Part shown: positions 1 through 40,749 of the stretch, one piece after another
How the letters are laid out: each line of letters begins with the position of its first letter
Numbering within the stretch: the stretch's first letter is position 1
Assembly: GCA_000091205.1 (NCBI GenBank)
Contig: AP006491.2
Reading direction: 5' to 3' (one strand)
DNA length: 64,000 nt
DNA from: Cyanidioschyzon merolae
Taxonomy: Eukaryota
Notes under the pieces: generated by a model
What the model saw: only the letters and a program-made list of their open reading frames with translations
Told to the model about the DNA's origin: nothing
Database searches by the model: none
Program-made: the position numbers and the translations under genes

Positions 1-109
1 TATTTCTTCAAATGGACGCACTGCGGAAGCGTCTGATATAAATCGCGAAAAACCAGTAGACGACATGTAGTAGGGGTGGAACCCAAACGAGGTAAGAGAC
101 TATAAAATG

Positions 110-1400: not shown

Positions 1401-1544
1401 AGAGTAAACGTCCGTGTTATTTGAGTGGACCTGTTCAATTTTACTCTATGCTGGGTGTGTCTCTGATCTAAACAAGGGAGTGGCGCTTCCCCTGTTCCAA
1501 AGTCGAATAGTTGAACAATTGCTAACGGCTCGCTTGCTCTCACT

Positions 1545-3770: not shown

Positions 3771-4349
3771 TTGCGCGGCTGTTGGAGAAGTTATTGTATG
3801 GCCTGGCACCAAAGCATATCAGAGTTTGCGCGAACTTCCCGGTTTGGCTTGACAGGGGTGCCAGCTGTGGAAAATCCATCTGATGAACCATACGCCTTCC
3901 GATACTTCGTGCTACAGTTCAGAATTCGGTGTTCAGTTCGCGATGACGAGTGGCTAGGCGTTTGGGGCTCGCTTCCTCTGCTGCACGATTGTTTCAACGC
4001 ACCACTTCCGATGAAAAAACTACGTCGCTCAAGGGGCCAGATCGAGTGGGCTTTGCGTGTGCGTTTTCCAAAGCATCTTTATGACGGTTGCGAGTTTACG
4101 TATATATACTGCCTGTTACGGAAAGTTTCTGCGGATAGCCAGTATGAATCTTCCTACGAAGTCGTTGGCTGCGAGCCCTGTCCGTTACGCAAAAGTATTC
4201 TGAGCAGCGAAATCTTGCCATACGGTTTCTACGAACATGACGATCGCTGGGGTCATAATGACGGGAAGGTATATCCAAGGCAGGATCGCCTGGGTGTACT
4301 TGTATACAAGCATCTTTCGCGAGACGCCGCTCCATGCCGCATATCATAG
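3771..4349 (+). CDS. Hypothetical protein, possible CBM20-like carbohydrate-binding fold
   Basis: This is a 192-aa ORF. The segment FVLQFRIRCSVRDDEWLGVWGSLPLLHDCFNAPLPMKKL...IEWALRVRFPKHLYDGCEFTYIYCL loosely follows the CBM20 pattern recalled from memory. The match is weak. Confidence 0.3.
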   Translation: MRGCWRSYCMAWHQSISEFARTSRFGLTGVPAVENPSDEPYAFRYFVLQFRIRCSVRDDEWLGVWGSLPLLHDCFNAPLPMKKLRRSRGQIEWALRVRFPKHLYDGCEFTYIYCLLRKVSADSQYESSYEVVGCEPCPLRKSILSSEILPYGFYEHDDRWGHNDGKVYPRQDRLGVLVYKHLSRDAAPCRIS

Positions 4350-6322
4350 GCAAGAGACAAAGTGACAGCTTGAACGCGCACGTCACACTTGTCTGCAGCA
4401 CTTTGACGTTTATGAGAAAGCGCTCAAGGTGTAGTCGAAAATTCCATCTCACGTGGCCCAAATGCACAGCGACACAGCACTTCATAGAGCGCGCTCCACC
4501 GGCAAACACGAACGGCGGCAGGCATCAATCGTGACCCTGTGCCCGAGCGGAATTTCCTCTGTTCTTACGACTTACAGTTGTTCCGCTCGGTGCAAATATT
4601 TCCTACTCAGCTTTAGTTGATAATGAGGCCGAGATCCCCAATATCTGGAATATTGGAATGAGAAGCATGAAGTCGTTTCGTGGTGGCGTCGATTAGCAGC
4701 AGTCTACCTAGAGAAATCGCCTATCCGCTCTTTTGCCCCCGGCTTCTTGTTGTATTTGGAGCTGTAATTTCTGGAATCATTGTACCAGAGCACCTTTTTG
4801 GTTTTGGTCTGTTTTCGTCGCAGTTATGGAACGAAAGCAATGTGTTCTGTAGATTCGAGAGAGGTCCCGGAAGTATGCTATACTGTCACTGTTAACTTGA
4901 GAAAGAATGGCCTTGGCCCTAGAGCTCACTTCTTCCACGGTAAGCAGGTTGATCAACCAAACATGTAGCAGTCCTTATTCTTAACGTCTCGCAATCTAGA
5001 CAGAATTTATGAATCTCCATTCACGCGAACGTCTTTTGATCAATTCATTCTGCACCATAAGCTCCGTGGGAAATTCTATCCAAGAATCCACGCGATTTTA
5101 AGCTTCCTTACCCCTGATACGAACGATAATGAAGAAACACGGATGGACAAGGAAAAAACACATTCTCGTGCGAGACCGTCGCATCTTGAACAACAGACTA
5201 CCGATTCCATACAGAAACGCGAAAGCTCATTACAGGAGTGAAGGGCGATCGCCTCACTCGATGCAGACTCATTAGGAAGAAATGGTAGACCTCTAGATGG
5301 ATAATTAAAGAGGGAGTAAACCATTTTTCATGAAGAAGAGACAAGCGAGAATGAGGACAATATTAGTCGTATCGGCAATTCGATCCTGTGGTCGCCTATA
5401 TGTCACTTAGATGACAGGGCCTGTCAACACCTTATCCATCATCGAAAGCGTCTGAAAGCTTTTCTTTTCAGTATTTCTCTTTAAAACTTGTCGAGAAAAC
5501 AGTTGCCATGACTCCAACGCGTTTAGAACATACGCAGCTGAGATTGGCGTGAAGCCGCTCCACGTGCCCACCTACTTTCACTGGTTCAGCCGAGTCGGGG
5601 GCGCACTCTCTGTGGTCAGACGCCATGATCACGCTCATGGATTCATGAAAGTGTCTTTTGTGTCCATTACACCGTTTTGTGACGAGCCTATTTTCTACAA
5701 GATGCTCTCTACCTTCACCAGGGTTGAGTTGCAGTGTTGGTCTTCTGCTTGGGCACGGGAGGGAGCCAAAAGGCGAGCCGGACTCGTTGGCGTGCTCGAG
5801 ACGGATAAGGTGACGGAAAATGTTCGTAGAAGTAGTAAATGTACACATAGAAAACGCAAGTCTCAGAGCCATCGTAAACCCAGTGCATCTGAATACCGAG
5901 GAAAAACTGATATGGAGTATAGCGATCACATCTATACCACTTTTCGAAGAAGGGGAGAAATAGAAGAGAACACCAGACAAAGAAGAAAGCTCCATCCTGT
6001 GGGAGGACGAGGAGAGACAGGAAATCATAACACGTCGAAGCGGAAACATCAGTCTGAAACTTTTGACAAAGCCTCCCAGCTAAAACTCATGAGCGGCGAG
6101 AACCTTTGGTAATGTGGGATGCAGAACTCCATTGGGGAACGCGCTGACTGTCACTCCATGTGGGGGCGCTTAGCTTCCCTCGCCCTGGTGCATCTCGCCA
6201 AACGACTGATCGCAACAGTTTCATTCGCAGGGATCCAAGCTGTCAACATTCCTCTGTAACTTCTCGATCAAGCATGCATCTGAAACCTGATGCTCGGGAT
6301 AGACGATGCAATACGACCTGAC

Positions 6323-7235
6323 TTTTTCCATGGCTCTGTATTATCTGGAGTCGGGCGTGATGGACGCCAGGCGGCATGCCAGCGGGTGGAATAGCGGCGT
6401 CAGACCCGATGATAGCGCTCTGAGCACCTGAACGAGTTGAGCGGGATGCGTTGTGCGCGCCACTCACAGAGCGTACAAGAGCGTGTATCTGGCTCACGTG
6501 GGCTATCCCTGGCAGGTTTCCATGAGACCGCATTGAGATCGCCAACCAGCTCGGTGCGATGAAACCACGAGCGCGCACCAGCTCACTTCTTCAATGGAGA
6601 GCAGAGGGAGATGATCGACAATTCGCGTCGTTTGGCGGTAGCCTGTGGCGCTCGACGCGCAGTGCTGCGCACAGGCTGTACTCCCGTGCCTTCGACGGCG
6701 GCGTGCAACGAGTGCACGAGTCGATTCTGCACTATTGCTGTCAATGCGAACAGGGCGATGGACGCGCATCACAGGCAGGGGTGCACGCTGGAGCTGGTAG
6801 AGAGGAACAGCGTAGAAGCGTGTCGGATGCACGGGCTGGTCAACGGCAAACTGACCGGGCGTCAGTTGACGAGGCCATCGAAGATAGGAGACTTGCTATG
6901 CCGCGGCTCGATCCGCAACAAGTGCACATGCACTTGCTGCACCCAGACCTGAGCGCCTCGATCAACTTACGGAAATGCCGGGAGCGTTCGGAGCGTCCCG
7001 CGGCATTGTGTCGAGCGAACTCTTGAGGGAATCCTTTAGTGCTCAGTGGAGGTATTGTGCTGGGAAGCTGATGCGTTGCGATGAATACGAATCGGTGGTC
7101 AGGTGGGCGGACATTGGATATCCGCCCTGGGCGAGTCGCTGGTGTAGCACGGGTCAGCGAACCGGAAAGGCTGGAGCATTACACAGATGTATATAATGGG
7201 AACCTTTTCTCCTGGGTGATTGGTGGACCACAATG
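6323..7235 (+). repeat. R1 repeat: third, partial copy of the outer ~0.9 kb of the 32-40 kb inverted-repeat arms
   Basis: ORFs 6503..6832(-), 6559..7026(+), 6611..6952(+) and 6975..7196(+) translate almost identically to 39816..40145, 39872..40339, 39924..40265 and 40288..40509. Near-identity stops at ~6323. A diverged continuation is visible upstream: acatagaaaacgcaagtctcag at ~5845 versus acacagaaaacgcaagtctcag at ~39219. Confidence 0.85.
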
Positions 7236-8201: not shown

Positions 8202-9479
8202 TCAGTTATATACCATGTAGCGCCCTGTCGCGCTGAACTTGGCGTAACCGCGGATGACCTTATTGATCGCATCCAGAAAGTCCTGCTCACAGACAGTCTT
8301 CCTCCGAGCTCGAATGGCGAACATTCCCGCCTCGGTGCAGACACTGCGAAGATCCGCGCCGGTCGTGTTTGGGCACAGACGCGCCAAAAGTTCAAACCGG
8401 ATGCCTCGTTCACAATTCATGCTGCGTGAGTGAATGCGTAGTATCGAGGTTCTGCCTTCTAGGTCGGGCAAACTGAACTCAATCTTTCGATCGAGCCGTC
8501 CAGGACGTAAAAGTGCTGGGTCCAGCGTGTCGGGTCGGTTTGTAGCCATAAGAACCTTGATATTTCCCCGTGCATCGAATCCATCGAGCTGGTTAACAAT
8601 CTCAAGCATTGTTCTTTGTACTTCGTTATCACCTCCTTGCCCATCATCGTATCGCGCTCCACCAATCGCGTCCACTTCGTCAAAGAATACAATTGCAGCC
8701 CTTTTTGAGCGCGCCAACTGAAACAATTCACGCACCATGCGGGCGCCTTCTCCGACATACTTTTGCACAAGTTCAGATCCTATCACTCGAATGAACGTCG
8801 CATCGGTCCTGTTCGCAACTGCACGAGCAAGGAGAGTTTTTCCAGTACCAGGAGGGCCGTACAACAAGACTCCTTTCGGCGGATCGATGCCAAGTTCAAT
8901 GAACCTTTCCGGATGCAGAAGAGGTAATTCGACAACTTCCCGAATCCGTTCAATCTGCTCTTTGACACCGCCAATATCTGCATAAGTCACGTCAGGTTTC
9001 TCTTCCACGGTCATCATTGTAACGCTGGGATCAATACGTGGCGGCAGAGGAAGCTGGATTTGGAACTTGTTACGGTCGACGCCAACACGCATTCCCTCCT
9101 CAATGTCCGTGGGCGCAACGCGCTCCCCGAGACCCACAACGTACTTTGCAATCTGGCGGATGTTAATGACGTACTTTGCTCGCTCAGCTCCTTCATCGAT
9201 GATTTTGGTGCAACGCGCCACTTGTAGGGGCTGCTCTTCTTGCATAGCCTGTTTATCGGCAACGAGATCCCACGAACTCGGGGCTGCTAGACCCGTGTCA
9301 AGCTCGCGAACGCCCACAAGCTCGTCAATATTTTTCGTACACTCCTCTATCTCTTTCTCCAACTGCTTGATTCTGTTGCTGTAAGGGCCGAGACCGTAAG
9401 ACCGGAGCAGTTGTATATCTCCAGCATCAAGAGGTTTCGTGCTCTTACTTCCAGTACCCGTCTCAGAGTCCCCTGCCAT
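8202..9479 (-). CDS. RPT1: 26S proteasome regulatory subunit 7 (Rpt1/PSMC2), AAA ATPase
   Basis: The ORF carries Walker A GPPGTGKT and Walker B IVFFDEVD. It is collinear with PSMC2 throughout ([53 protein letters not shown]-terminal [13 protein letters not shown]). The likely start is the Met at 9479 (MAGDSETG...); the ORF-track Met is at 9551. Confidence 0.95.
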
Positions 9480-9780
9480 GATTAAGAAAGGTTGCCGCTG
9501 CAGGGCGTTCAACTCGCTAACAAATTGAGAGAAGACAATATTGTACGCCACGGGAATACAAAGAGAAGTGCGCCAGTGTCCGCCCTAAACTAATAGCGCC
9601 TCAGCGGTACTTCCCCGTGCTGAAAAGAACTCAAAGAATTCAACAGTCGGACCTATAGCTAAGATTCAGCGGCGCGCACACGCCATCAGAGCCACCGTAC
9701 GCCGCGTGCACCCATGTTGCCATAACACGGGCTATGTTCCCGAACTCACGACTATACTCGAAAGTTCGTGCCACTCACCG

Positions 9781-10640
9781 TTACCGCAAACGACGGCCTT
9801 GGCGGGCTTTTACCGCTATCGCTTCCATTTCCCCTCTCGCCTCTGGCTTTGAATACGCCGGTTGCTCATGTCTCTCCAGCCCCATGGTCACCAGCCGAAG
9901 GATACTGATCGTAGCGTTGAAGTCTCTGTTTCGCGGCTTCTCGCTGTTGTAGACCCGTTTTATGCACTGGCGCGAGTCACGATCTGAGCTTCGTTTACCA
10001 TTTGCATCCTCTTTCTGCACGGCCTCGGGGTGCACTCCCCAGCCGTTACACTTGGACCTGGTCAGGTGTTCCCATGTGCATCCACCAGTCCTCCACCGCC
10101 TCTGAGCGCCACTGTGTGGCGCGTAAACGCTTGACCCATCCCTCGGTACATGCGCTTTACCGTTCCGGAAGGCTCCGCCCGATGCCGTCCTCCGTTTCCG
10201 CGCGCTGCGCCATGCCCAATGATCACAGGCCTCTCCCGGGTGATTTCCTCAGCGAGTACTCTGTTCGCTGCACATTTGTGTGCGCGCTGTCGGATTCGAG
10301 TACTCGGACCCCGCCTCCTTGCCCGCTCTTCGTTTTTCTGCCAATTCTTCGCACAAAAAGTGCCGATGAGCTTGACGCGAATCGAGACACCTTGCCAACT
10401 CGTGGGTGTCGAGCCCGCATGTACTGTTTATTAGCGACGATGCGGCCAAGACGTCTGAGACTCACGCCGGGCTCGCTCGCAGGCGGCAGGCCTATCTTCG
10501 CCTCGGCGCCCTCGTATTTGAGGAATATTCGACCAAGGTTTAGAAACTGGCTGCTGATACCGGTTGCTCCCAGAAGCAGCGTCCGGGGTCGTCGTCGACG
10601 TCTCGCTGACCGTGATGTCCACGACATTCAGCACCAAAGA
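9781..10640 (-). pseudogene. Y-family TnpB/Fanzor-like RuvC nuclease relic (arm A copy)
   Basis: The minus-strand translation, spread across frames, reads VVDITVSET, then LGRIVANKQYMRARHPRVGKVSRF, then PVIIGHGAARGNGG, then EHLTRSKCNGWG (10036-10071), then RQCIKRVYNSEKPRNRDFNATISILRL (motif at 9892-9933). This follows the TnpB order: RuvC-I, helical RxxNxRxDxxHK, RuvC-II region, TSKxCxxCG, CxxC and DRDxNAAxNI. Frameshifts are present and Zn-ribbon cysteines are lost. Confidence 0.55.
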
Positions 10641-11139
10641 GTCGAAGGAGTGCTCAGAAACGAGGACCCGGAATCTCCAACATACCTATGAGTTCGTAGA
10701 ACATTACTGATGCGCTTCGAATGCCGAAGCTGTACGTCTGAACAAAAGTTCAGAAGCAAATCGAACGACGGCCACAGAGAAAGCAGTTTAGTGTTCTCTT
10801 TATAAATCTGACATGGACTAATGGTCTATAAACTCAACTGTATTCCTGCCGCACTGTGTATGATCGAATGCTGTTTGCGGTCTAGGGCGGGGGCCAGAAA
10901 TCACGATGCCATGTACCCGATAGATCGTAGGCGAATCGCCTGTGCGATACATATTCTTTCCTGAACAGTGCATGGAGGACTGCGTTCCTCCTCCAGGTCG
11001 GTCGTACAACAGTACTCAGATGGTTGACGAACACTGACCGAAAGAAGTAGATGCACTCTGCGTCAAACATCGATATTCTCAGAGAATGCGCGCGATCAAC
11101 GGTAGAAAACGGCCCGCTGACCACCTTTTACGAAAGACA

Positions 11140-11780
11140 AATGCGAAAATAGTAGTCGCTACGCGCGTCCCTGTTCCTTAAAAGCGTGTTCGAGTGGTCC
11201 TGAATACACGGGGTACAGTCGCAAAAAGAAAGTCTCAGTTCGTGCACGGCCATTTCCCACCGAGGTCACAGCTACTTCAGCGTTCGTGGAACGCCACTAT
11301 CCGTATGGAGCACAGGGACCGGGACACGGACGTCGGTTTGCTTGTTCAGTCGATGAAACTTGCTTCGGACGAGGCGGCCGGAGCGTAAATGGGTATTCGC
11401 GGACAGTGCACCCGCTGGATGTACGATCGAGCTCGAAGAGAGCGAGGATGTCATCATCTGCTCCAGACGGAGTGGACTTTATTTGCGGCCTCAGATTCAC
11501 TAGTGGAGAAGGCTCATCGACCAACACCAGCCACTTGATCGAATCATGGAAGATTTCGCCCCGACGTCGGGCGACGTCCTTCTGCTGGACACCGTGGCAT
11601 TTCACCATCCCCCTTGCGTTCGGGCTTTTGCCGATCCTGTCGAGGTATAGTGCTGCTTTTCATTCCTCTGTGCTCTACTTGATTCAACCTCATCAAAAGA
11701 ATGTTTTCCATTGTGAAACGTATGATGTCGCTCCAGTGGGGTCATCGCTGAAGCTTCCGGCACACGTTGACACACGGGCG
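11140..11780 (-). pseudogene. X1-family TnpB/Fanzor-like relic (arm A copy), 5'-truncated
   Basis: The minus-strand pieces run in TnpB order: SSRAQRNEKQHYTSTGSAKARTQ (11617-11676), VARRRGEIFHDSIKWLVLVDEPSPLVNL (11492-11569), SGADDDILALFELDRTSSGCTVRE, VSSTEQ...CPGPC, and FCDCTPCIQDHSNTLLRNRDARSDYYFRI (11140-11226). There are at least three frameshifts or stops. A ~310-bp non-coding tail runs to 10831. Confidence 0.5.
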
Positions 11781-11839
11781 CATGGTGTCTTACTTTCGCG
11801 AGTCCTAGCTTTTGCGGGAAGGTCCTCACCTAAACGAAT

Positions 11840-12363
11840 GAACAATCGCTATGATTTTGAAGAAACAGAGAATCCAAGGGAATGGTATGGATGTGGAAGT
11901 CGGGGATCCTGAGTTCCGTCATTGCTGGATTCGACGCAGCCAGAACGAAAAATGCCTCTTCTCGCCGACCATCGAGCGAAGAAGAGCAAGTGGCGAAGAA
12001 GGAGAAGAACGGAGATAGGCGAGGGACGGTGTTTGTCGAGTGGAACGATGACGAGACTGTAGCGGAACAGAGGGCACGAGTACTAAGAACCGTCGGTGTG
12101 ATGAGATCAGGGATCGGCAGTAAACGCATGGAGCTCGTAAGCCGAGACTTGAACGCTGCTACCAATATCAGACGATGCGTTGTGCTGGAGACGAGACCCG
12201 AGCAGCTGACACGATCCAACGCTATGCGGCAACTGCTGAGGCTCGAAGTGTACGTGAATCAACTGGAACCGATTGCAGGCGGCGGGTCAAAAAAGGCTGG
12301 GAGGCGTCCGCATGTGGGTATATATTTACCCTCAATGGCCGGGAAGCATGTCTCGTTTTACTG
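11840..12363 (+). pseudogene. X2-family TnpB/Fanzor-like relic (arm A copy), C-terminal half plus 3' tail
   Basis: The plus-strand translation reads PKRMNNRYDFEE, then (from copies B and C) GMDVEVGDPEF, then PTIERRRASGEEG, then GTVFVEWNDDETV, then ELVSRDLNAATNIRRC (12140-12178). Spacing matches RuvC-II through the LxYKA helix to RuvC-III. All four Zn-ribbon cysteines are missing, and there is a frameshift near 11890. Confidence 0.6.
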
Positions 12364-12709
12364 AATATAGTGTTGGACCGCAGGCCATACTATTACCCTC
12401 TGTGAAGACGAACATCCCACTTCTGGGTTTCACTCGAGCGGAGCGAATGCTTCCCGCTCGGGGCATGCATCGGCACGTACTCCATGCAGCGCGTTGCGCA
12501 GCCGTCGTAGCACTGGCGCGCAGCTCGTTGGATTGTGAACTGGACATCGGGGCGCTGCGCGCTGCGCGCCAGTGTCCAATCTCCGGTAGCATGATGATCG
12601 CTGGATGCGTCCAGGCCAGGCGAGCGTGCTCATCTCCGTACGTGCGCAGGCGTGTGTGTCTGGATGTGCGTACATACTTTTTGCTGGAACGCCGGTTATT
12701 AAAGGCCGC

Positions 12710-15016
12710 ATGTCTGCTGCAGGTTTCCCTAGAGTTTCGACGGCACTTTCCGCCGCGCTGAGGTCTAGGGGAGCACAACGCTGTGGAAGAGTATGGTGGG
12801 CGAGGGCGCCATCGCAGAGCTTGCGGGTTCTGCTTCGGAACTACACACCAAGTCTGGGTTCTTTCGGGCTACGGCGGCAGCTTTATCGTCTGGAGCGAGA
12901 AGCAGACTTGTACCCTGAAGATTGGAGAAAGCAGATGATACTCTTAGAACAGCTAAACCGAGAAGGATCTGTTCAAAGTGCCGAGAAAGTTATTCAACGC
13001 ATCGAATCCGGGAGGTATGCTCTCGGAGAAGAGGCAAAGTACGAGTACATCAAAGCCCTTGTACGAGTTGGAAAACTGGAGGAGCGGTCGAAAACTGGCG
13101 GTGGCCTCGAGTCCGTGTTGCGAAATATTCCAGGCTCTGGAAGTGTCCTTTCTCGAACTGGGAATAGTTCGGAAAGTGGTCGCCTTCCCAGAGGCGCTGC
13201 CGAGCCTCCGACTGCCGCGCGCTACACAGACAACTTTAACAGTCCTCTCCAAATGTATGCCGGTGAAGGCACGCACCCAACGAGCGCCGGTGCGACAGCT
13301 CCCTCCTCAGCGCGAGCGTTGATGGGAGGTGCCTCCGGCGGAGCGTCCGGCAGCACCGAGGAACCGCTTGTCGTCACCCTTGCTGAGCCTACCTTCAGGA
13401 CGCAACTGTGGAAAACGATCCGCACGCTTGGCACTGTATTTCTGCTAATGTCAGGAGTTGGTGCAGTTATGGAGGAGCGGGGCCTATCCCGAGGAATCAG
13501 TATGCAGCAAGAGGTGCTACCCGAAGAAGGCAACAAAAATCTGCGACGGTTCTCTGATGTGAAAGGCTGTGACGAGGCGAAGGATGAACTCATAGAGATA
13601 GTCGAGTATTTGAAGGCGCCACAGAAGTTTACGCGCCTCGGCGGAAAACTCCCCAAGGGCGTGCTTCTAGTCGGGCCACCTGGAACAGGCAAGACACTGT
13701 TGGCGAGAGCGATTGCGGGCGAGGCTGGCGTTCCGTTTTTCTACGCATCCGGCTCTGAATTTGAAGAAATGTTCGTAGGCGTCGGCGCTCGCCGCGTGCG
13801 GGAACTCTTTAACGCAGCTAAGAAGCGGGCTCCCTGTATCGTGTTCATTGACGAAATAGACGCAATAGGCGGCAAGCGGAACCCCAAAGATCAAATGTAT
13901 ATGAAAATGACCCTGAATCAGCTGCTTGTTGAGCTCGACGGATTTTCGTCCTCTGAGGGTATTATCGTGATCGGAGCTACGAACTTCCCGGAATCGCTCG
14001 ACAAGGCGTTGATTCGTCCGGGCAGATTCGATCGCCATGTTATCGTTCCGAACCCTGACGTTCGTGGACGAGAAGAGATCCTCACCCTTCACACCGAGAA
14101 GATTCCGCTTGCGGACGATGTGAATCTCGAAATACTTGCTCGGAGCACGCCTGGATTTTCTGGCGCAGATCTAGCGAATCTGGTGAACATGGCAGCTTTG
14201 AAGGCGGCCCGTGAAGGCGCTTCCCTCGTTACTATGGAGAACTTTGAGTTCGCCAAAGACAAGATAATCATGGGTGCCGAGAGACGCAGCGCAGTTATAT
14301 CAGAGGAAAACCGTCGTTTAACTGCTTACCACGAAAGCGGGCACGCGCTAGTCGCGCTCTTCACGGATGGCGCGCTGCCGGTGCATAAGGCAACCATTGT
14401 GCCGCGTGGCGTCGCTCTCGGCATGGTCGCGCAGCTCCCGGAAAAGGATATGACGTCTATGTCACGCAAACAGATGCTTGCTAAACTCGACGTGTGCATG
14501 GGCGGCAGAGCTGCTGAGGAACTGATTTTCGGACCTGAAAATGTCACGAATGGGGCGGAGTCTGATATAGAGCAGGCAACAGAGCTGGCAGAGGCAATGG
14601 TGACCCGCTTTGGTATGAGTCCCAAGCTGGGTAACATGGCTTACGACATTCAGAGGGAGGTATGTGGGGAGCTTCTGCACGTGGTGGAGAAGGAGGTCAA
14701 ACGATTTTTGGACGAAAGCTACCAGCGGGCAAAGCAAGTGCTGCTGACTCATGAAAAGGAACTCCATCGAGTGGCAGCGGCCCTACTGGAGAAAGAAACC
14801 TTGGGCCGGGAGGAGATCATTCGTATCGTGAGGGGCGATCCTCTCCGCGAGCAGTTGTCGGAGGAAACGACCGTGAAATCCGAAGAGGAGGCCGCCGACA
14901 CTGGCAGCCTGGCTGAAAACGTTGCAGCAAGAGCACGAGGCGCTGTCGCCGCAGCAGCGGCAAAAGCTGGCGTGCCTCGGCCTGGAAAAGTCCCGGCAAC
15001 AGCGAAAACGGCCTGA
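12710..15016 (+). CDS. YME1: ATP-dependent zinc metalloprotease YME1-like (mitochondrial i-AAA FtsH family)
   Basis: The ORF has one TM ([15 protein letters not shown]), Walker A GPPGTGKT, Walker [10 protein letters not shown], and the HEXXH site [10 protein letters not shown]. It is collinear with yeast Yme1 as recalled ([56 protein letters not shown]). The likely start is 12710 ([21 protein letters not shown], presequence-like); the ORF-track Met is at 12605. Confidence 0.93.
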
Positions 15017-15927
15017 GCATAGAGCTGAAGGTGCAAATGCGATTGCTTTGCACCTCATCAGCTGAGCAGAAGAGCAACCTGGATTCTGCGTCCGGCTTCG
15101 GTTTGTTTCCGGGAACCGTGTCCTGTACAGGTATGACGATGCTCAAAGGTACATGAACCCGAATCGCTATTTCGAATGTGTGCAAATGCAAGTCTCCTCT
15201 GGAAAATTTCGTTCTGGATATCTCAACAGGTCGCAATGACCGTTGATTCGACGTACACCTGTACGCCCAGAAGACAGGATGAAAAGGAATGGATCTAGAT
15301 CTATCCGGGTCCGAACTAAATGCACATAAAATCAAAAATCCCACGATGCTAGGTGCTGCATGTTTCAGCGCTGACGCATTCTCTCTATAGGTGATGATGC
15401 TCTTCGCGTCGGCGGGATTTGGTAAGCTTCTTAAGAGAGGTACGAGGCACCCAGTCACCACCAAAACCATACATGCGTCATCATTTTTGACGGAAAGTAG
15501 GAATTCGCTCCTCATCGGACACTACAAACGGGTTTTGAGTCGCCACCCGAGCAGTTCGTTCCACGCATGCAGTTCGCTTGCGGCATTTTGAGGTTGAAGC
15601 ACTCTTGGTCCAAGAAAAAGCGTTTCGATATCCTGTTCGCGGCTGAGGGACTTTACATTGTTACTGGAACGAATATGTCGGTTCACAAACCTGGATATAT
15701 TGTCGAAACACTTCAGTATAAACAATCCTCAGAAACGAGAAATTTCAGACGTCGTAGTGCAACGTTTTTACTGGCACTCGAGCATCGTCACAGAGCTTTT
15801 TTATTGCCTGCTTCGAGACCGGCCTTAGAGCCAATTTTGAAGTTTGCGGCATATACATATGTTAAGCAGAAAAAAAGATTCGCAATTGTGTGCGGTAAAA
15901 GAATATCCACTCGCAGAAGCTTATTAT

Positions 15928-18489
15928 CCTTTTTTGACCCGCCGCCTGCAATCGGTTCCAGTTGATTCACGCACACTTCGAGCCTCAGCAGTTGCCACAT
16001 AGCGTTGGATCGTGTCAGCTGCTCGGGTCTCGTCTTCAGCACAACGCATCGTCTGATATTGGTAGCAGCGTTCAAGTCTCGGCTTACGAGCTCCATGCGT
16101 TTACTGCCGATCCCTGATCTCATCACACCGAGGGTTCTTAGTACTCGTGCCCTCTGTTCCGCTACAGTCTCGTCATCGTTCCACTCGACAAACACCGTCC
16201 CTCGCCTATCTCCTTCTTCTCCTTCTTCGCCACTTGCTCTTCTTCGCTCGATGGTCGGCGAGAGGAGGCATTTCTCGTTCTGGCTGCGTCGAATCCAGCA
16301 ATGACGGAACTCAGGATCCCCGACTTCCACATCCATACCATTCCCTTGGATTCTCTGTTTCTTCAAAATCATAGCGATTGTTCATTCGTTTAGGTGAGGA
16401 CCTTCCCGCAAAAGCTAGGACTCGCGAAAGTAAGACACCATGCGCCCGTGTGTCAACGTGTGCCGGAAGCTTCAGCGATGACCCCACTGGAGCGACATCA
16501 TACGTTTCACAATGGAAAACATTCTTTTGATGAGGTTGAATCAAGTAGAGCACAGAGGAATGAAAAGCAGCACTATACCTCGACAGGATCGGCAAAAGCC
16601 CGAACGCAAGGGGAATGGTGAAATGCCACGGTGTCCAGCAGAAGGACGTCGCCCGACGTCGGGGCGAAATCTTCCATGATTCGATCAAGTGGCTGCTGTT
16701 GGTCGATGAGCCTTCTCCACTAGTGAATCTGAGGCCGCAAATAAAGTCCACTCCGTCTGGAGCAGATGATGACATCCTCGCTCTCTTCGAGCTCGATCGT
16801 ACATCCAGCGGGTGCACTGTCCGCGAATACCCATTTACGCTCCGGCCGCCTCGTCCGAAGCAAGTTTCATCGACTGAACAAGCAAACCGACGTCCGTGTC
16901 CCGGTCCCTGTGCTCCATACGGATAGTGGCGTTCCACGAACGCTGAAGTAGCTGTGACCTCGGTGGGAAATGGCCGTGCACGAACTGAGACTTTCTTTTT
17001 GCGACTGTACCCCGTGTATTCAGGACCACTCGAACACGCTTTTAAGGAACAGGGACGCGCGTAGCGACTACTATTTTCGCATTTGTCTTTCGTAAAAGGT
17101 GTCAACGGGCCGTTTTCTACCGTTGATCGCGCGCATTCTCTGAGAATATCGATGTTTGACGCAGAGTGCATCTACTTCTTTCGGCCAGTGTTCGTCAACC
17201 ATCTGAGTACTGTTGTACGACCGACCTGGAGGAGGAACGCAGTCCTCCATGCACTGTTCAGGAAAGAATATGTATCGCACAGGCGATTCGCCTACGATCT
17301 ATCGGGTACATGGCATCGTGATTTCTGGCCCCCGCCCTAGACCGCAAACAGCATTCGATCATACACAGTGCGGCAGGAATACAGTTGAGTTTATAGACCA
17401 TTAGTCCATGTCAGATTTATAAAGAGAACACTAAACTGCTTTCTCTGTGGCCGTCGTTCGATTTGCTTCTGAACTTTTGTTCAGACGTACAGCTTCGGCA
17501 TTCGAAGCGCATCAGTAATGTTCTACGAACTCATAGGTATGTTGGAGATTCCGGGTCCTCGTTTCTGAGCACTCCTTCGACTCTTTGGTGCTGAATGTCG
17601 TGGACATCACGGTCAGCGAGACGTCGACGACGACCCCGGACGCTGCTTCTGGGAGCAACCGGTATCAGCAGCCAGTTTCTAAACCTTGGTCGAATATTCC
17701 TCAAATACGAGGGCGCCGAGGCGAAGATAGGCCTGCCGCCTGCGAGCGAGCCCGGCGTGAGTCTCAGACGTCTTGGCCGCATCGTCGCTAATAAACAGTA
17801 CATGCGGGCTCGACACCCACGAGTTGGCAAGGTGTCTCGATTCGCGTCAAGCTCATCGGCACTTTTTGTGCGAAGAATTGGCAGAAAAACGAAGAGCGGG
17901 CAAGGAGGCGGGGTCCGAGTACTCGAATCCGACAGCGCGCACACAAATGTGCAGCGAACAGAGTACTCGCTGAGGAAATCACCCGGGAGAGGCCTGTGAT
18001 CATTGGGCATGGCGCAGCGCGCGGAAACGGAGGACGGCATCGGGCGGAGCCTTCCGGAACGGTAAAGCGCATGTACCGAGGGATGGGTCAAGCGTTTACG
18101 CGCCACACAGTGGCGCTCAGAGGCGGTGGAGGACTGGTGGATGCACATGGGAACACCTGACCAGGTCCAAGTGTAACGGCTGGGGAGTGCACCCCGAGGC
18201 CGTGCAGAAAGAGGATGCAAATGGTAAACGAAGCTCAGATCGTGACTCGCGCCAGTGCATAAAACGGGTCTACAACAGCGAGAAGCCGCGAAACAGAGAC
18301 TTCAACGCTACGATCAGTATCCTTCGGCTGGTGACCATGGGGCTGGAGAGACATGAGCAACCGGCGTATTCAAAGCCAGAGGCGAGAGGGGAAATGGAAG
18401 CGATAGCGGTAAAAGCCCGCCAAGGCCGTCGTTTGCGGTAACGGTGAGTGGCACGAACTTTCGAGTATAGTCGTGAGTTCGGGAACATA
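15928..18489. mobile_element. Composite repeat, arm B (inverted copy of arm A): X2 (15928-~16380, minus), X1 (~16440-17390, plus), Y (17391-18489, plus)
   Basis: ORF-track translations are identical to arm A for the 229-, 134-, 94-, 84- and 72-aa ORFs of the Y part. The X part differs at a few residues. The X2 motif lies at ~16046-16084(-) and the Y motif RNRDFNATISILRL at 18289-18330(+). The X2 3' terminus is replaced: similarity to copies A and C ends at 15928, so about 70 bp of tail is missing. Confidence 0.9.
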
Positions 18490-19816
18490 ATCCTTTTTGT
18501 AGTTACCTGGGTCTAAAATCGAAGGCTTGAACGAGATGCCCTATGGATGCGCGGTAGCTGCTATCATCTTTGGAGGAGACGGCTTCCCTTTTCTAATCAT
18601 CACGACGTTACACAAGCTTGGGCCCATTTCTTTCGTCGAAAATGGGGCCTGGATCGTTCCAGCGATGGATCCGCGCAACGCGAAGGCACCAAAGACAGAA
18701 ATTAATGGTAAACTGCGAACGGGTATACTGGATTAATCTGCTGCCCGGGGGGTTCCGTGTAAATTACATAGCACGTACGCGTGGTGGGCCTCATGCTCAG
18801 TAACTTTCGCGAAACTTCTCTCGGGCGCGATGCGGTTTCCAATCAATACCCTCGAATCAGTATTGTTTCGAGTCGTGACGGATTGAAGCATCCCCTGCGC
18901 TTTTCCCCCGAGCGATCGCAAGCAATGATTCACGGAATTCCCTGGCAAGAGCTCCACGAGATGCTTTTTTGCTCTAGGAGCACATGGTGCCGGATTGAAT
19001 TACCTGAGACTTATCTTGGCATGGTAGCCCTACCCTCCAAGGTAGCTACTGTCAGCCAACTCAGATACTAAAAAGCGAGGCATCTCGTTCAGATATCTGC
19101 TCACGCGCGTCGAACCGGACTGTGGGGATTTCGTGAGCTTTCCTGGCGCGTTTACCTCAGCCATAGGCATTTGCTGTAGTCACTGGAACCGAGGGCACAC
19201 TCGAGGTCTCATGCAGAATATCGCTTGGCGCTGGTATATTACCAAATCATATGCAGAGAATTAATGATTTGAGCGTATTGCACAAAACCGCTGTTCAACG
19301 AAAGAGAGGAGATTCATTTCGTGTAAAGCGGGCGAACGGAGACTCTTAAAGCCGGAACGGGATCGACGACATCAGATTTGCACGCGCGCTTCGGGTCCGA
19401 AGCTGAACGTGCGCGACTCCCGACAAGAGGCCCCGTCCATTTTTTTACCTCTGGAAGATTTACACTGACTATGGATCTCCCGTGGCGCGATTTGTGTTTG
19501 CATCCGGAAAAACGATCATTTTTCCACACTATATCATCACGTCCTGTCGCCCGCCACCCACATTTTCCAGACAGAGACACCGTTCATATTGCTTCCTCAG
19601 TAGAGCACCAAACTGTTGTGAGTACCGAAATTAGCGCCTAAAATGCCAGGGTAGACGCCCCAACGAGACGGAACGGCTTTGCCTTACCCTCATGGGCATC
19701 GGCCTCAGAGGCCACGTCCATGAGCGGTCGCAATCGCCACTTATGTGGAGCGTAGCGCACGCTTGCTGCACGAATCCCGGACTTCTTACAAGTGTGGCGC
19801 ATGGAAAAGTTGGCAG

Positions 19817-20509
19817 TCACATTACTATCGCCCGTGAACTCCAAAATTCAACGGCTTGAAGGTACAACTGCCTGTCGAAAGGCACACTGCTACCACCTTC
19901 CGTCAGGATTGCGTTTCGCATAATAGTTATTGGTTGCATGGGAGTCTCATACGGTTCATCCTGCGCTTTAATGCTCACAACGCGCCACGGGGCAGGGTCC
20001 TCCGGTGGCTTTTCAGCCATCGCTAGCGCCTCTTTGATGCACTGCTCTCGGGAATACAGAATAATGTCAAGATAGCGAGCAACGGGCAAACTTTCGTAAC
20101 CACCGATTTTTTCAAGTGGAAAATATCGAATTAGTACCGGAACCTCTTTCTCTGTGCGGGCATCATATTTCGTCCTCAAAAGAATTTCGTTCTCGGGTGT
20201 TATCTTCCAAACTGAAACGCGTGCGTTTGTAAAGTTTGGGATGAACAAATGCTTACAGAAATCAGCGTACCCTTGTACGAGAGCAGGTTTGTCTCTGAAC
20301 TCTAGCTCTAGAGCGAGTCGTTCCCTGTAATACTCGTTCAGCTTATCCTCGAACAGCTGAGGTTCAAAGAATATTCTCGTCCCACTGTGAGCAGGGTTAT
20401 TAAACTGACGCAGAACGAAGCGATCGAGCTTAAGGAAACTAGAAGTTGCCATAGAAGCGTCAACGACGATCGGAAATGTGGCGTCCAGATGGCTCTGATT
20501 TACGGCCAT
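19817..20509 (-). CDS. Conserved protein of unknown function (DUF3228-like)
   Basis: This is a clean 230-aa ORF with globular composition. Family recognition is from memory only. Its start codon lies 35 bp from the divergent P5C reductase start. Confidence 0.7.
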   Translation of the reverse strand: MAVNQSHLDATFPIVVDASMATSSFLKLDRFVLRQFNNPAHSGTRIFFEPQLFEDKLNEYYRERLALELEFRDKPALVQGYADFCKHLFIPNFTNARVSVWKITPENEILLRTKYDARTEKEVPVLIRYFPLEKIGGYESLPVARYLDIILYSREQCIKEALAMAEKPPEDPAPWRVVSIKAQDEPYETPMQPITIMRNAILTEGGSSVPFDRQLYLQAVEFWSSRAIVM

Positions 20510-20544
20510 GGAAGATTGGAGTTCTCATTAGCCCGAAAGTCAAA
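20510..20544. promoter_or_regulatory. 35-bp head-to-head intergenic spacer (putative bidirectional promoter/5' UTRs)
   Basis: It lies between the ATG of the DUF3228-like gene (20509, minus) and the best-supported ATG of P5C reductase (20545, plus). Confidence 0.4.
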
Positions 20545-21372
20545 ATGGAGCCCCTAAGAATAGGTTTTCTTGGCGGAGGTGCCATGTGTGAAGCCATACT
20601 CCGTGGGCTGTTGGACAAAAAGGTTGTGCAGAGCTCCGATGTATGGGTAAGCGACGTCGCTGAGTCTCGTCTGGAAGTAATGCGAGGTCTCGGCGTCAAC
20701 GCCACTGCAAACGGTCGAAAGGTAGTTGAAAAAGCCTCTGTGATTTTGCTTGCCGTCAAACCGGACACGGTACCTGAGGTACTACGCGATGTTCACGACC
20801 TGATCAAGCAGAGCCAACTCCTTGTGTCAATCTGCGCTGGAGTGCCTTTACAAGCTTTGGAGGACCTCGTGCCGGACGGTGTGGCGGTCGTCCGAGTCAT
20901 GCCCAACACCCCGTGCCTCGTCGGCGCCGCAGGCTCCGCCTATGCTCTCGGAAAGAACGCTTCACTCGCAAACCATGCGAATATCGTGGAGGCAATATTT
21001 GGAGCCGTTGGACTGACTGTCCGTGTTCCAGAGAAGCTGCTCGATGCAGTTACGGGAGTGAGTGGCTCCGGACCGGCATACGTTTTTATGTTCATGGAGG
21101 CGCTCGCTGACGGAGGCGTTTGTGCGGGGCTCCCACGTGACATTGCAAAGAAACTGGCTGTCCAAACAGTGTACGGATCAGCGAAGATGGCCATGGAAAA
21201 CGAAAACATGCATCTCGCAGAGCTCCGTAACCGCGTTGAATCACCGGGTGGAACAACAATAGCAGCGTCTCGCGCTCTAGAGGCAAACAGCTTCCGTGCA
21301 ACTGTCATCGGCGCGGTCATGGCCGCGGCCCAGAGAAGCGCTGAAATGCGAACAAAGCCGTCGCCGTTCTAG
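20545..21372 (+). CDS. P5CR: Pyrroline-5-carboxylate reductase
   Basis: The N-terminal Rossmann motif is RIGFLGGGAMCEAI. The ProC signature region is LRNRVESPGGTTIAASRALE. The start was chosen at MEPLRIGFLGGG; the ORF-track Met at 20476 would overlap the neighbouring gene. Confidence 0.9.
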   Translation: MEPLRIGFLGGGAMCEAILRGLLDKKVVQSSDVWVSDVAESRLEVMRGLGVNATANGRKVVEKASVILLAVKPDTVPEVLRDVHDLIKQSQLLVSICAGVPLQALEDLVPDGVAVVRVMPNTPCLVGAAGSAYALGKNASLANHANIVEAIFGAVGLTVRVPEKLLDAVTGVSGSGPAYVFMFMEALADGGVCAGLPRDIAKKLAVQTVYGSAKMAMENENMHLAELRNRVESPGGTTIAASRALEANSFRATVIGAVMAAAQRSAEMRTKPSPF

Positions 21373-21459
21373 AAAGGGGGCATGGCCTTCGTCAGACTGA
21401 ACCGTAACATAGTGGAACGAGAATTGTTTTAAGACCGCAAAACCAGAAAGTAATTTCTC

Positions 21460-22284
21460 TCATGAATCTATATCCTCAGCAGAGCCAAGTCTTTGGCCAG
21501 TACCCCAGTGATGCCCCCGTATTTGTGAAAGAATGGAAGCGCTGCGGGGCTGAGTTATTTCGTTTCTCTGATTGCGAGGTTGGTTGCGTGGACGTTCTCC
21601 AAACAGTCGGTACATCCAACTGGGCGTTTTGGTGATTCCCGCTCTTTGGTGTCCATGAAGCGATGGATATATCGCATCCAAGAAGTAGAAGAGGTGACCA
21701 CTGAGCACGCCAACGATGCCTGGGATATCGAGCCGTCCTGCGAGCAGCGTATTAATTGCCAAAAGCGCGAAAGAAAGGTACGCAGCGGGGACGGCAAAGA
21801 CAAAGACATGAACTCGTTCACGTGGAAACTTTCGCGACCATACATGCATTATGGCCATCATTAAACATCTGCCGAGAATCGGAAGTGGTACCAAGACCAT
21901 TGAGGCCAAACACAAGAAAAACTCGATTACTACCAACATCCAAGTGTACTCAGCGGAAGAGCCCATGAAGACTCCGGTTTCGAGGGATTTTGAGAAGCGA
22001 TAAAGAAACACTAGATCGAACAGGAAATTCAAGCCGAGCGGCCCCAGAAGAAATGACGCTGTCAACGGCCGCCAGATCTCGTACTTTCGAAGGACCCGAT
22101 CCCAGTCAAGAAGTACCGCCCCAAACGGAACGAAACCCAGACCACAGGCAAGGGTGAATAAAGTGGCAGCAGTCAGCCAAGTTCTTGTCACCCGGGGAAT
22201 AGAATAATAGAACGAGGTTAGAGACAGCTCGTCCCCTCTCCAGTCACGAACGTTTGCCATTGTGCAGCAAGCAGTACGAAACAA
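21460..22284 (-). CDS. DER1: Derlin (Der1-like ERAD membrane protein)
   Basis: YYSIPRVTRTWLTAATLFTL opens the Der1-like domain. The WR motif is KYEIWRPLTASFLLG. There are four hydrophobic helices, and GHLFYFL is present. An alternative start lies at 22260 (MANVRDW). Confidence 0.85.
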   Translation of the reverse strand: MFRTACCTMANVRDWRGDELSLTSFYYSIPRVTRTWLTAATLFTLACGLGFVPFGAVLLDWDRVLRKYEIWRPLTASFLLGPLGLNFLFDLVFLYRFSKSLETGVFMGSSAEYTWMLVVIEFFLCLASMVLVPLPILGRCLMMAIMHVWSRKFPRERVHVFVFAVPAAYLSFALLAINTLLAGRLDIPGIVGVLSGHLFYFLDAIYPSLHGHQRAGITKTPSWMYRLFGERPRNQPRNQRNEITQPRSASILSQIRGHHWGTGQRLGSAEDIDS

Positions 22285-22303
22285 TTAGATTTAGGTTTCG
22301 CTC

Positions 22304-23284
22304 ATGGAATCGTGGAGACGTTCTTGCAAGTCGTGGAGGGAGCGCTTTTCCGATGATCTGGTTTATGAAATAAATATTCATACCGACGAATACTTCGGAA
22401 AATTGAAAATTTTTCTCCAACAGGCACCGTCTGGGAGTTACGTCAAGAAAAAGTTTAGAAGCTGCGAAGCCTCTGGTGGAGCAACTGTAGTGAAAAACTT
22501 GAGCTGCGGAGCACCAGTAACGTCAGGAACTCTGGCGTCGCACGGTCCACATCCCAGCGATTTCCGAATCGTCGGTTATGCTCTTAACGAAAAGCGCCTG
22601 TGTCGAGATATTACACCTCCAGAAGAACCGAATCGTTTGTGCGACAGCGCTGCCACTGGCTGGACCGCCTGGGATGCTAGCCTAGTACTAGCGAAGTGGT
22701 TGGAAAGGCGGCCTTACCTCGTGTGTAACAAGTTATGTCTTGAGCTCGGAGCTGGTATCGGCTTAGTATCCTCAGTAGCCTACTGCCTCGGGGCAAAGCT
22801 AACTGTATCCACAGACCGGGACGATGTGATATTCCTCCTGAAAAGCAACTTAAACCGTACAGTGGAGGCCTACATAGCGTATAATAATCAACTTAGGGTG
22901 AAACGAGCAGTTGACTCGAAGCTCGCGGCAGAAGTACTTCACTGGGAATCGAAGGAACATTTGGAGCGTGTACTGGCCGTGTATGGCGCTCCTGAAGTCA
23001 TTTTATGTTCAGATCTGGTTTACGAAGAGTTAGCTTCCCGCGCGCTTGTGCACGTACTTGTCCGAATATCGCGAGCAAGCTTGCAAATGGGGAGAAAACC
23101 TTTGATCATAATGGCGCAGGACGAGCACGTCCCTGAAGTTCTCGAACAATTCTTGGCCGGCATAAGTGCGTTTTTCACTGTTGACCGTGTGCCATGCTTA
23201 GATTTTAATCCGAATTTTAGCAGTGAGTTGATTAGAGTTTACCTTTTCCGGCCAAAAGCTGAACACTTTTTATATAATCAGTAA
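22304..23284 (+). CDS. Protein-lysine N-methyltransferase-like (Methyltransf_16 / FAM86-METTL21 type)
   Basis: ATGWTAWDASLVLAKWL...LCLELGAGIGLVSSVAYCLGAKLTVSTD matches SAM motif I and post-I of family 16. The last codon and stop (CAG TAA, 23279-23284) lie inside the terminus of repeat copy C. Confidence 0.75.
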   Translation: MESWRRSCKSWRERFSDDLVYEINIHTDEYFGKLKIFLQQAPSGSYVKKKFRSCEASGGATVVKNLSCGAPVTSGTLASHGPHPSDFRIVGYALNEKRLCRDITPPEEPNRLCDSAATGWTAWDASLVLAKWLERRPYLVCNKLCLELGAGIGLVSSVAYCLGAKLTVSTDRDDVIFLLKSNLNRTVEAYIAYNNQLRVKRAVDSKLAAEVLHWESKEHLERVLAVYGAPEVILCSDLVYEELASRALVHVLVRISRASLQMGRKPLIIMAQDEHVPEVLEQFLAGISAFFTVDRVPCLDFNPNFSSELIRVYLFRPKAEHFLYNQ

Positions 23285-24811
23285 CACGAGACATGCTTCC
23301 CGGCCATTGAGGGTAAATATATACCCACATGCGGACGCCTCCCAGCCTTTTTTGACCCGCCGCCTGCAATCGGTTCCAGTTGATTCACGCACACTTCGAG
23401 CCTCAGCAGTTGCCACATAGCGTTGGATCGTGTCAGCTGCTCGGGTCTCGTCTTCAGCACAACGCATCGTCTGATATTGGTAGCAGCGTTCAAGTCTCGG
23501 CTTACGAGCTCCATGCGTTTACTGCCGATCCCTGATCTCATCACACCGAGGGTTCTTAGTACTCGTGCCCTCTGTTCCGCTACAGTCTCGTCATCGTTCC
23601 ACTCGACAAACACCGTCCCTCGCCTATCTCCTTCTTCTCCTTCTTCGCCACTTGCTCTTCTTCGCTCGATGGTCGGCGAGAGGAGGCATTTTTCGTTCTG
23701 GCTGCGTCGAATCCAGCAATGACGGAACTCAGGATCCCCGACTTCCACATCCATACCATTCCCTTGGATTCTCTGTTTCTTCAAAATCATAGCGATTGTT
23801 CATTCGTTTAGGTGAGGACCTTCCCGCAAAAGCTAGGACTCGCGAAAGTAAGACACCATGCGCCCGTGTGTCAACGTGTGCCGGAAGCTTCAGCGATGAC
23901 CCCACTGGAGCGACATCATACGTTTCACAATGGAAAACATTCTTTTGATGAGGTTGAATCAAGTAGAGCACAGAGGAATGAAAAGCAGCACTATACCTCG
24001 ACAGGATCGGCAAAAGCCCGAACGCAAGGGGAATGGTGAAATGCCACGGTGTCCAGCAGAAGGACGTCGCCCGACGTCGGGGCGAAATCTTCCATGATTC
24101 GATCAAGTGGCTGCTGTTGGTCGATGAGCCTTCTCCACTAGTGAATCTGAGGCCGCAAATAAAGTCCACTCCGTCTGGAGCAGATGATGACATCCTCGCT
24201 CTCTTCGAGCTCGATCGTACATCCAGCGGGTGCACTGTCCGCGAATACCCATTTACGCTCCGGCCGCCTCGTCCGAAGCAAGTTTCATCGACTGAACAAG
24301 CAAACCGACGTCCGTGTCCCGGTCCCTGTGCTCCATACGGATAGTGGCGTTCCACGAACGCTGAAGTAGCTGTGACCTCGGTGGGAAATGGCCGTGCACG
24401 AACTGAGACTTTCTTTTTGCGACTGTACCCCGTGTATTCAGGACCACTCGAACACGCTTTTAAGGAACAGGGACGCGCGTAGCGACTACTATTTTCGCAT
24501 TTGTCTTTCGTAAAAGGTGGTCAGCGGGCCGTTTTCTACCGTTGATCGCGCGCATTCTCTGAGAATATCGATGTTTGACGCAGAGTGCATCTACTTCTTT
24601 CGGTCAGTGTTCGTCAACCATCTGAGTACTGTTGTACGACCGACCTGGAGGAGGAACGCAGTCCTCCATGCACTGTTCAGGAAAGAATATGTATCGCACA
24701 GGCGATTCGCCTACGATCTATCGGGTACATGGCATCGTGATTTCTGGCCCCCGCCCTAGACCGCAAACAGCATTCGATCATACACAGTGCGGCAGGAATA
24801 CAGTTGAGTTG
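23279..24811. mobile_element. Solo X element (X2+X1 relic pair), copy C, same orientation as arm B
   Basis: It is 1.54 kb and nearly identical to 15928-17390. It also retains the ~70-bp X2 terminus seen in arm A. The X2 motif lies at 23464-23502(-) and the X1 RNRD region at ~24416-24502(+). The high-coordinate boundary is at 24811: acagttgagt, then unique sequence. Confidence 0.9.
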
Positions 24812-38150: not shown

Positions 38151-38152
38151 AA

Positions 38153-40542: not shown

Positions 40543-40749
40543 AGAGGTGTTATATCATTGGATACTAGTAAGAATACTCGGGATATAACGAGAGCGTTTG
40601 GTAGCATTGCTACAACGCAGGATCGGAGTCCTGGTTATGCATTGAAATATTAAATAACTCTCAGCGGAAACCTCCGAGGGCGTTTTCAAATCAAGAGGGA
40701 AAACGGTTCGCTCGGAGTCTACACCTGTGTGACACTAATACAGAAAACT

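Follow-up and report, generated by a model that had tools for sequence, protein, structure and literature searches.

Three near-identical repeats, here called copies A, B and C, lie within a 64,000-nucleotide (nt) stretch of Cyanidioschyzon merolae contig AP006491.2 (assembly GCA_000091205.1), nuclear DNA of strain 10D or a near-identical one and hereafter the window, and each of them carries a relic, X, of a Fanzor1 open reading frame (ORF) of the CMe-1 type. On balance, we think it probable that they are older, clustered copies of a dead CMe-1 derivative whose centres have been exchanged by ectopic recombination and whose neighbourhood has been reshuffled. A, B and C would be three of at least five clustered members, together with copies E and J, of a non-autonomous, internally deleted CMe-1 derivative, and the ~99.5% identity of the copies would not give the age of the duplications. 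Gene conversion and crossovers among members within about 50 kb would have exchanged the centres while the extreme ends stayed diverged, and the same recombination would have rearranged the neighbouring genes. The relics would now be passive homology tracts that encode no functional nuclease.

Copies A, B and C are composites carrying a gutted Fanzor1 relic

Comparison of the window with itself by blastn confirmed three near-identical copies (Table 1), with identities ranging from 99.35 to 99.73%: A 9733-12296 matches B 18489-15928 at 99.53% over 2564 bp, A 10831-12369 matches C 24810-23273 at 99.35% over 1539 bp, and B 15928-17391 matches C 23346-24810 at 99.73% over 1465 bp. Z, mid and X are the three modules of the composite 2.6-kb unit, and X forms the last ~500 bp of each copy. 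Two further members, E and J, come from metagenome contigs that are 99.4-99.8% identical to the window. Copy E is full length and 99.0-99.4% identical, and it lies between XPD and an Oxidored-like gene (L015/L017), about 3.3 kb left of the window; copy J consists of mid and X, with Nse1 and ILVD as its neighbours, and is found farther along the same 31.6-kb contig (L022). Scanning the metagenome contigs for exact 26-mers returned the contexts of A, B, C, E and J only, and A, B and C were found at the same junctions in metagenome contigs from several samples.

The relationship of X to a known element was established with the consensus of CMe-1A, taken from the supplement of PMC3627910. CMe-1A is one Fanzor1 family in C. 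merolae, with a 3169-bp consensus, a 734-aa protein and about 150 copies that are ~80% identical to the consensus; it has no terminal inverted repeats (TIRs), and its target-site duplications (TSDs) are undetermined (Bao & Jurka 2013, Mob DNA 4:12, PMC3627910). X matches this consensus only at nt 895-1019, the ORF start, and at nt 2811-3088, the ORF end, with a nucleotide identity of 65-71% over just these two blocks of ~130-280 bp. At the protein level, X aligns to CMe-1A only at about aa 615-729, with 51% identity at aa ~640-729. Consensus nt ~1020-2810 are missing from X, a deletion of ~1.79 kb or ~597 codons. Copy A has kept MDVEVGDPEF at 11887-11916 and the RuvC-III aspartate motif RDxNAAxNI, which reads RDLNAATNI in all three copies (12143-12169, 16055-16081 on the minus strand and 23473-23499 on the minus strand) and aligns to VNRDFNAAINI of P0156, the longest CMe-1 relative. 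The C-terminal ORF of X contains VSRDLNAATNIRRC. Both the RuvC-I aspartate (DPG motif, CMe-1 aa ~428) and the RuvC-II glutamate (DEFRT motif, aa ~590) fall inside the deletion and are absent from X; the D/E/D triad is invariant in the CMe-1 family, its RuvC-I and RuvC-II residues being D484 and E656 in the family alignment. Judged by its predicted protein, which is without RuvC-I, RuvC-II and REC/WED, X cannot be a nuclease, and on its alignments the source subfamily of X is related to CMe-1A but distinct from it, the element family itself being known. The first-pass annotation of the window had listed missing cysteines as losses common to the copies; these are not point losses, as that part of the protein falls within the ~597-codon deletion. 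A spliced intron restoring the frame of X was considered and rejected, with ~600 codons, including RuvC-I and RuvC-II, absent and no homologous DNA for them in the copies.

The assignment of the parent family comes from P0156, the best CMe-1 relative (752 aa; L028 6001-8259, JGI Ga0504780_000149), whose gene copy is 85-89% identical to the consensus and full length but has no ATG and carries an in-frame stop 35 codons early. The top seven Foldseek matches in the PDB to its AlphaFold model, which is of low confidence (predicted local distance difference test score 57.7), are all Fanzor proteins (E 8e-11 to 1e-7), SpuFz 9ceu being the best. By its modelled fold, the CMe-1/P0156 parent family is Fanzor. 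Only the fold search matched: phmmer and a CMe-1 family profile run against PDB sequences gave no match. Pfam searches found no domain in the individual X, Z and mid ORFs or in the six frames of 9700-11950, Rfam returned no family above threshold over the whole window, and the exact X ORFs had no match in the protein collection. RNAalifold on six diverged 3' ends, too small a set to exclude a fold, gave -11.4 kcal/mol with a covariation term of +0.95, and so no covariation support for an omega-RNA-like fold. The Z and mid modules show no similarity to CMe-1A consensus 1-894; tblastn matches to CMe-1 on the Z minus strand (E 0.1-4) were judged to be low-complexity noise. Inside P0156 itself, an acidic motif of ~25 aa (…TKHEE.K.A.P..Q.VQDND…) is expanded in tandem.

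Centres are nearly identical but ends are diverged and probably recombined

We compared the copies along their length. From 9733 to 11036, A and B do not differ at all; the following 1260 bp hold 12 differences (P = 2e-4), which are all the differences from A in the 2564-bp body of B. The last ~73 bp of B (15855-15927) are homologous to the A tail but only ~52% identical to it, with ~35 differences. This second type of tail recurs in J, where its first 56 bp are identical to those of B. The tail of E is diverged from 12322 onward, and its first 20 bp are unlike A and B; the first 66 bp of J are diverged as well. Presence of Z and type of tail occur in all four of the four possible combinations: with Z and tail 1 (A, E), with Z and tail 2 (B), without Z and with tail 1 (C), and without Z and with tail 2 (J). 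Recombination between copies is required by this four-way pattern. B (Z, tail 2) and C (no Z, tail 1) could be the reciprocal products of a crossover between an element with Z and tail 1 and a J-like element without Z and with tail 2.

Allele distribution among strains was compared next to this. Between strains the repeats differ by 0.78%, unique DNA by 0.355%, and B from C within strain 10D by 0.27%, figures to be read with the reservation that metagenome contigs may be chimeric in repeats. With that reservation, the copies would be no younger than the split of the strains. At three sites, one of them the indel at 12010, copy C in L001 has the A/E-type alleles. A donor for five clustered E-specific differences (10042-10204) was sought in the diverged Z copies, which gave a mixed pattern and none that could be identified. 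The first-pass annotation had held that the relics were copied recently, either by segmental duplication or by mobilisation in trans. Recent copying is not supported in that form, as high identity is confined to the centres, the ends are old, and the copies sit at the same sites across strains; and beyond those two options, the best-supported process is an exchange among older copies, by ectopic homologous recombination or by gene conversion.

A more active source of such exchange can be envisaged. The relic 3' ends occupy the guide-RNA-coding position of Fanzor/TnpB elements, and if a trans-acting Fanzor recognised them, guided breaks would be repaired from sister copies. We regard this as very improbable; if true, it would be a eukaryotic counterpart of TnpB 'homing', actively driving concerted evolution and rearrangements at these sites.

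Copy boundaries coincide with element termini

Arbitrary copy boundaries, as segmental duplication would leave, were tested for and are not what the alignments display: the boundaries are module termini (10831 and 12369), and divergence along the copies is strongly non-uniform. The 5' terminus of mid, TTTC|AACTCAA (TTTCAACTCAA), is common to C, J and K, a 70%-diverged copy in L027. At the other end, a 3' terminus ...TTTTACTGA(A/T)TATA at 12369 is common to A, C and E despite their different flanks, the tail of A terminating in ...TTTTACTGAATATA, and it is recognisable in diverged form in B and in the old relic G. Thus, the left boundary of C and the common right boundary are element termini and not arbitrary points.

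Defined, shared termini are also what recent mobilisation in trans would leave, with active machinery moving a 1.5-2.6-kb non-autonomous element to five nearby sites by local hopping and the few differences arising afterwards, and the family is repetitive genome-wide (about 150 CMe-1A copies; PMC3627910). However, the copies differ in length and end sequence, no TSDs or TIRs were seen by eye, and the copies are fixed, at unchanged positions, in every strain sampled. Moreover, CMe-1 is without a known transposase, its best relative P0156 has lost the ATG and has a premature stop, and the ~80% identity of typical family members to the consensus points to old activity. Recent trans mobilisation therefore seems to us improbable. 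In TnpB/Fanzor elements, Fanzor is an RNA-guided nuclease and not the transposase, so an intact X-like ORF would not itself be the mobilising activity. A search with the CMe-1 consensus for active relatives returned metagenome ORFs only.

The internal deletion is older than the multiplication of the copies

The first-pass annotation had also proposed that duplication post-dates inactivation, and here its reading was borne out. The N-terminus is fused to the C-terminus in A, B, C, E and J (99%), and the same fusion is found in D, G, K, P0034 and P0035 (43-75%). Copy D (Table 1) is 74% identical to A, B and C at 46811-47199 in the self-comparison and matches the same two CMe-1A consensus blocks as they do. 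Relic G has the same fusion, its 5' part lying at 1-103 and the remainder continuing beyond the left window edge. K and another copy in L027 are about 70% identical and share it, as do the metagenome ORFs P0034 and P0035 at 50% and 43% amino-acid identity, respectively. Since the same deletion occurs in copies that are 70-75% identical to A, B and C, inactivation preceded multiplication. These comparisons show, or at the least strongly support, that the ~597-codon deletion was a single ancient event and that the dead derivative then multiplied.

One of the diverged Z-like copies in the window (101-1371, minus strand) abuts relic G. With Z next to G, two lineages of the family have either gained or retained the association of Z with X.

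Frame differences are partly shared and partly private

In the part common to A, B and C, the alignment contains 12 variable sites, of which eight are private to A, four to B and none to C; two of the 12 are 1-bp indels. One is the base at A 12010 (Table 1). By the other, B alone is without the base opposite A 11121 and has a 286-aa ORF there, compared to 208 aa in A. A frame break right after MDVEVGDPEF is common to all copies. The deletion at 12010 offsets the earlier frame break in B and C, which have uninterrupted ORFs of 194 aa (15788-16372) and 170 aa (23278-23790), respectively, while A is still split, its ORF at 11882-12364 being 160 aa. Thus, the earlier claim of identical frameshifts in A, B and C stands for the break after MDVEVGDPEF but fails for the 12010 and 11121 indels, which differ among them. 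The peptides quoted as differing between the copies were all found. Copy A has AKKEKNGDRRG where B and C have GEEGEEGDRRG, and B has GGISRSG where C has GGIFRSG. The GGISRSG/GGIFRSG pair is translated from the strand antisense to X, and the AKKEKNGDRRG/GEEGEEGDRRG pair does not reflect residue divergence; it is a frame difference caused by the indel at A 12010, not substitutions.

An uninterrupted ORF restored in B and C by a compensating indel, together with the location of the copies in promoter-proximal intergenic DNA, would fit selection for near-identity, in which the unit or the 170-194-aa ORF had a host function as a regulatory element, an RNA or a small protein. Copy A starts 182 bp from the start of the Rpt1 ORF and so occupies the Rpt1 promoter region. 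However, the ORF is missing in A, the Z and mid modules have no Pfam domain, there is no Rfam match and no covariation support for a 3' RNA fold, and diverged family members decay freely. Selection would also not raise identity above that of neighbouring coding genes between strains. We consider such maintenance by selection very improbable.

X-type copies lie at each altered gene adjacency

To place the copies in their genomic setting, the gene order was compared with that of Cyanidiococcus yangmingshanensis (L007), a related genome (L008-L012) and a third species (L013). The Cyanidiococcus-type order is the Oxidored-like gene; block M (DUF3228, P5CR, DER1 and MT16); XPD; the 348-183-88aa-Rpt1 group; FKBP and FtsH; and G1. 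In C. merolae the order is the Oxidored-like gene, copy E, XPD (inverted), relic G, the 348...Rpt1 group, copy A, FtsH (inverted), copy B, block M, copy C and G1. Five of the 11 adjacencies from the Oxidored-like gene to G1 are altered, each with an X-type copy (E, G, A, B and C), and the six conserved adjacencies have none, an arrangement with a chance probability of 1/462. No similarity to X, Z or CMe-1 was found at the Cyanidiococcus-type loci. The FtsH segment, inverted relative to its neighbours in comparison with Cyanidiococcus, lies between the inverted pair A and B. Block M lies between XPD and the Oxidored-like gene in Cyanidiococcus-type genomes, and because the DUF3228-Oxidored-like adjacency exists in two other species, its relocation is derived in C. 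merolae. At the old site of M there is a solo copy, E, in the same orientation. Taken together, the copies mark local rearrangements and probably mediated them.

For block M, a specific path can be proposed. Recombination between direct copies on either side would have released M as a circle, with E remaining at the old site, and a crossover of the circle with a tail-2 element lacking Z, located between FtsH and G1, would have re-integrated it. Such re-integration predicts that B has tail 2 and Z and that C has tail 1 and no Z, and both are observed.

In Cyanidiococcus-type genomes, an FKBP gene is located between FtsH and Rpt1 (L007 7817-8698, compared with 12370-15927 here). It has no counterpart in the window, so at the A/B breakpoints C. 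merolae would have lost or relocated it.

Much of this picture could also be produced by recent duplication coupled to rearrangement, through break-induced replication, template switching or intramolecular replicative transposition, with a fresh copy made at each junction. A copy is present at every new junction, an inverted pair surrounds the inverted segment and a direct pair the moved block, the bodies are almost identical, and only five contexts, clustered, were found. By itself, however, coupled duplication does not explain why the ends of B, E and J are homologous yet strongly diverged, nor the four-way combination of Z and tail, and the boundaries are element termini and not arbitrary points. 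We consider it unlikely, although it deserves to be kept in view.

We favour exchange among older copies, and several points weigh against that choice. XPD is inverted, yet the copies that flank it, E and G, are in direct orientation, and simple recombination between the present copies therefore does not explain the XPD inversion. Neither the FtsH inversion nor that of XPD is polarised. Insertion of transposable elements (TEs) into enlarged or fragile breakpoint intergenic regions could give the same co-location without causation. The tails of A and C differ at only 2 sites in 73 bp, and for at least these two, recent copying could be genuine. Copies E and J come solely from metagenome contigs of strains near-identical to 10D and not from 10D itself, and metagenome assemblies can be chimeric inside near-identical repeats, which weakens the arguments from orthologs versus paralogs and from shared alleles.

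C. merolae is a model alga with a minimal genome. Repeats (12.7% versus 0.59%) make this genome 1.38x the size of that of its sister Cyanidiococcus, and rearrangements between the two affect 11 of 20 chromosomes (Cho et al. 2023, PMC9812998); neither 'breakpoint' nor 'gene conversion' occurs in the main text of that paper. The locus described here would be a concrete case of repeat expansion together with rearrangement, with dead Fanzor-derived homology tracts at every local synteny breakpoint and concerted evolution of their copies. It also carries a practical warning that repeat copies in the C. merolae genome cannot be dated by pairwise divergence.

Other relics and features of the window

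Further Fanzor-related sequences are present in the window. Family Y (Table 1), a second family of Fanzor-derived relics, matches CMe-1 aa 462-702 at about 40% identity. A 2.4-kb inverted pair, made up of its two long copies, encloses 34438-38145, where a CTLH-domain gene is located; relative to PFK, this gene is not inverted when compared with species L013. At 2866-3507 (plus strand) lies the 5' 640 bp of the CMe-1A consensus at 83% identity, a solo element of the TE-N2_CMe type, TE-N2_CMe being the first 635 bp of the CMe-1A consensus, which also occurs solo (Bao & Jurka, PMC3627910). A distant Fanzor-like remnant at 60202-60995 (plus strand) corresponds to CMe-1 aa 240-517 with 25-36% identity and is followed by a perfect 43-bp direct repeat (61020-61062 and 61078-61120).

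Outside the window, contig L027 (JGI Ga0556633_005064) has inverted Bestrophin genes at 195-1877 (plus strand) and 8954-10336 (minus strand), together with relics at 3627-5386 and 10839-12047, an X+Y composite and a 70%-diverged mid+X copy, bracketed by the Bestrophin genes. This locus may be another repeat-associated duplication or inversion.

The Rpt1 ORF beside copy A is longer than the annotated 425-aa protein: read from a GTG, it gains 24 codons upstream and reaches 449 aa. G+C content is 59-67% at 52000-58000, compared to ~53% in the rest of the window.

Table 1. Positions of the repeat copies, their modules and the surrounding genes in the 64,000-nt window
Feature	Position	Strand	Description
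Copy A	9733-12369	+	full composite of Z, mid and X, type-1 tail (self-blastn, alignments)
Z module of copy A	9733-10830	+	separate repeat family (sensitive blastn)
Mid module	10831-11851	+	5' part of the ~1.54-kb mid+X element
X relic in copy A	11852-12369	+	Fanzor1 CMe-1-type ORF with internal deletion (blastn/tblastn against CMe-1A consensus)
1-bp indel	A 12010	+	C in copy A; missing in B (after 16214) and in copy C (after 23632)
Copy B	15855-18489	-	Z, mid and X, type-2 tail
Copy C	23273-24810	-	mid and X, no Z, type-1 tail
Copy D	46624-47225	+	old X relic, 71-75%, same internal deletion, CMe-1A-like 5' untranslated region
Diverged Z-like copies	101-1371, 41383-41860, 50488-51719	- (all)	60-65%
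Family Y Fanzor relics	6318-7228 (+), 32029-34437 (-), 38146-40555 (+)		three copies, 98-99% identical
260-aa gene	1545-2327		
Rpt1	8202-9551	-	left neighbour of copy A; in BAM80036 cluster
FtsH	12605-15016	+	right neighbour of copy A; in BAM80037 cluster
FtsH segment	12370-15854		between inverted copies A and B
Block M	18490-23272		DUF3228, P5CR, DER1, Methyltransf_16; between direct copies B and C
P5CR ORF	20476-21372		identical to BAM80039.1

Comparison with known systems

The closest comparison is with CMe-1A itself, an element of the same host. X is homologous to the CMe-1A ORF start and to its C-terminal/3' part, no recognisable TIRs or TSDs are present, as reported for CMe-1A, and in both there is a separable 5' module that also occurs solo, Z here being analogous to TE-N2_CMe there. 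In contrast, Z and mid are unrelated to the 5' 905 bp of CMe-1A, and the copies described here are >99% identical to one another, whereas members of that family are ~80% identical to their consensus. Among Fanzor proteins of solved structure, SpuFz, GtFz and PpFz (PDB 8gkh, 9ceu, 9cer, 9cf1) are linked to the family by the match of the P0156 model and by the D/E/D triad, of which X keeps RuvC-III; unlike them, X is without RuvC-I, RuvC-II and REC/WED.

The history of the element resembles that of Ds derived from Ac and of derivatives like miniature inverted-repeat transposable elements, in that one ancestral internal deletion is found in many copies, the 3' end is kept, and multiplication followed the loss of coding capacity. 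It differs from them in having no TIRs or TSDs and a 5' part unlike the known autonomous consensus. As for the rearrangements, yeast Ty/delta elements, bacterial inversions flanked by insertion sequences (ISs) and translocatable units of the IS26 type offer the likeness of homogenised centres, diverged ends, recombinant variants, an inverted pair around an inverted segment, and a direct pair around the relocated block with a solo copy at the donor site. They differ in that the events here are deduced from comparative sequence alone and that the XPD inversion does not fit the present repeat orientations. Altogether, this is not a new kind of system: the element family and its deletion derivatives are well known, as are gene conversion and rearrangement mediated by repeats.

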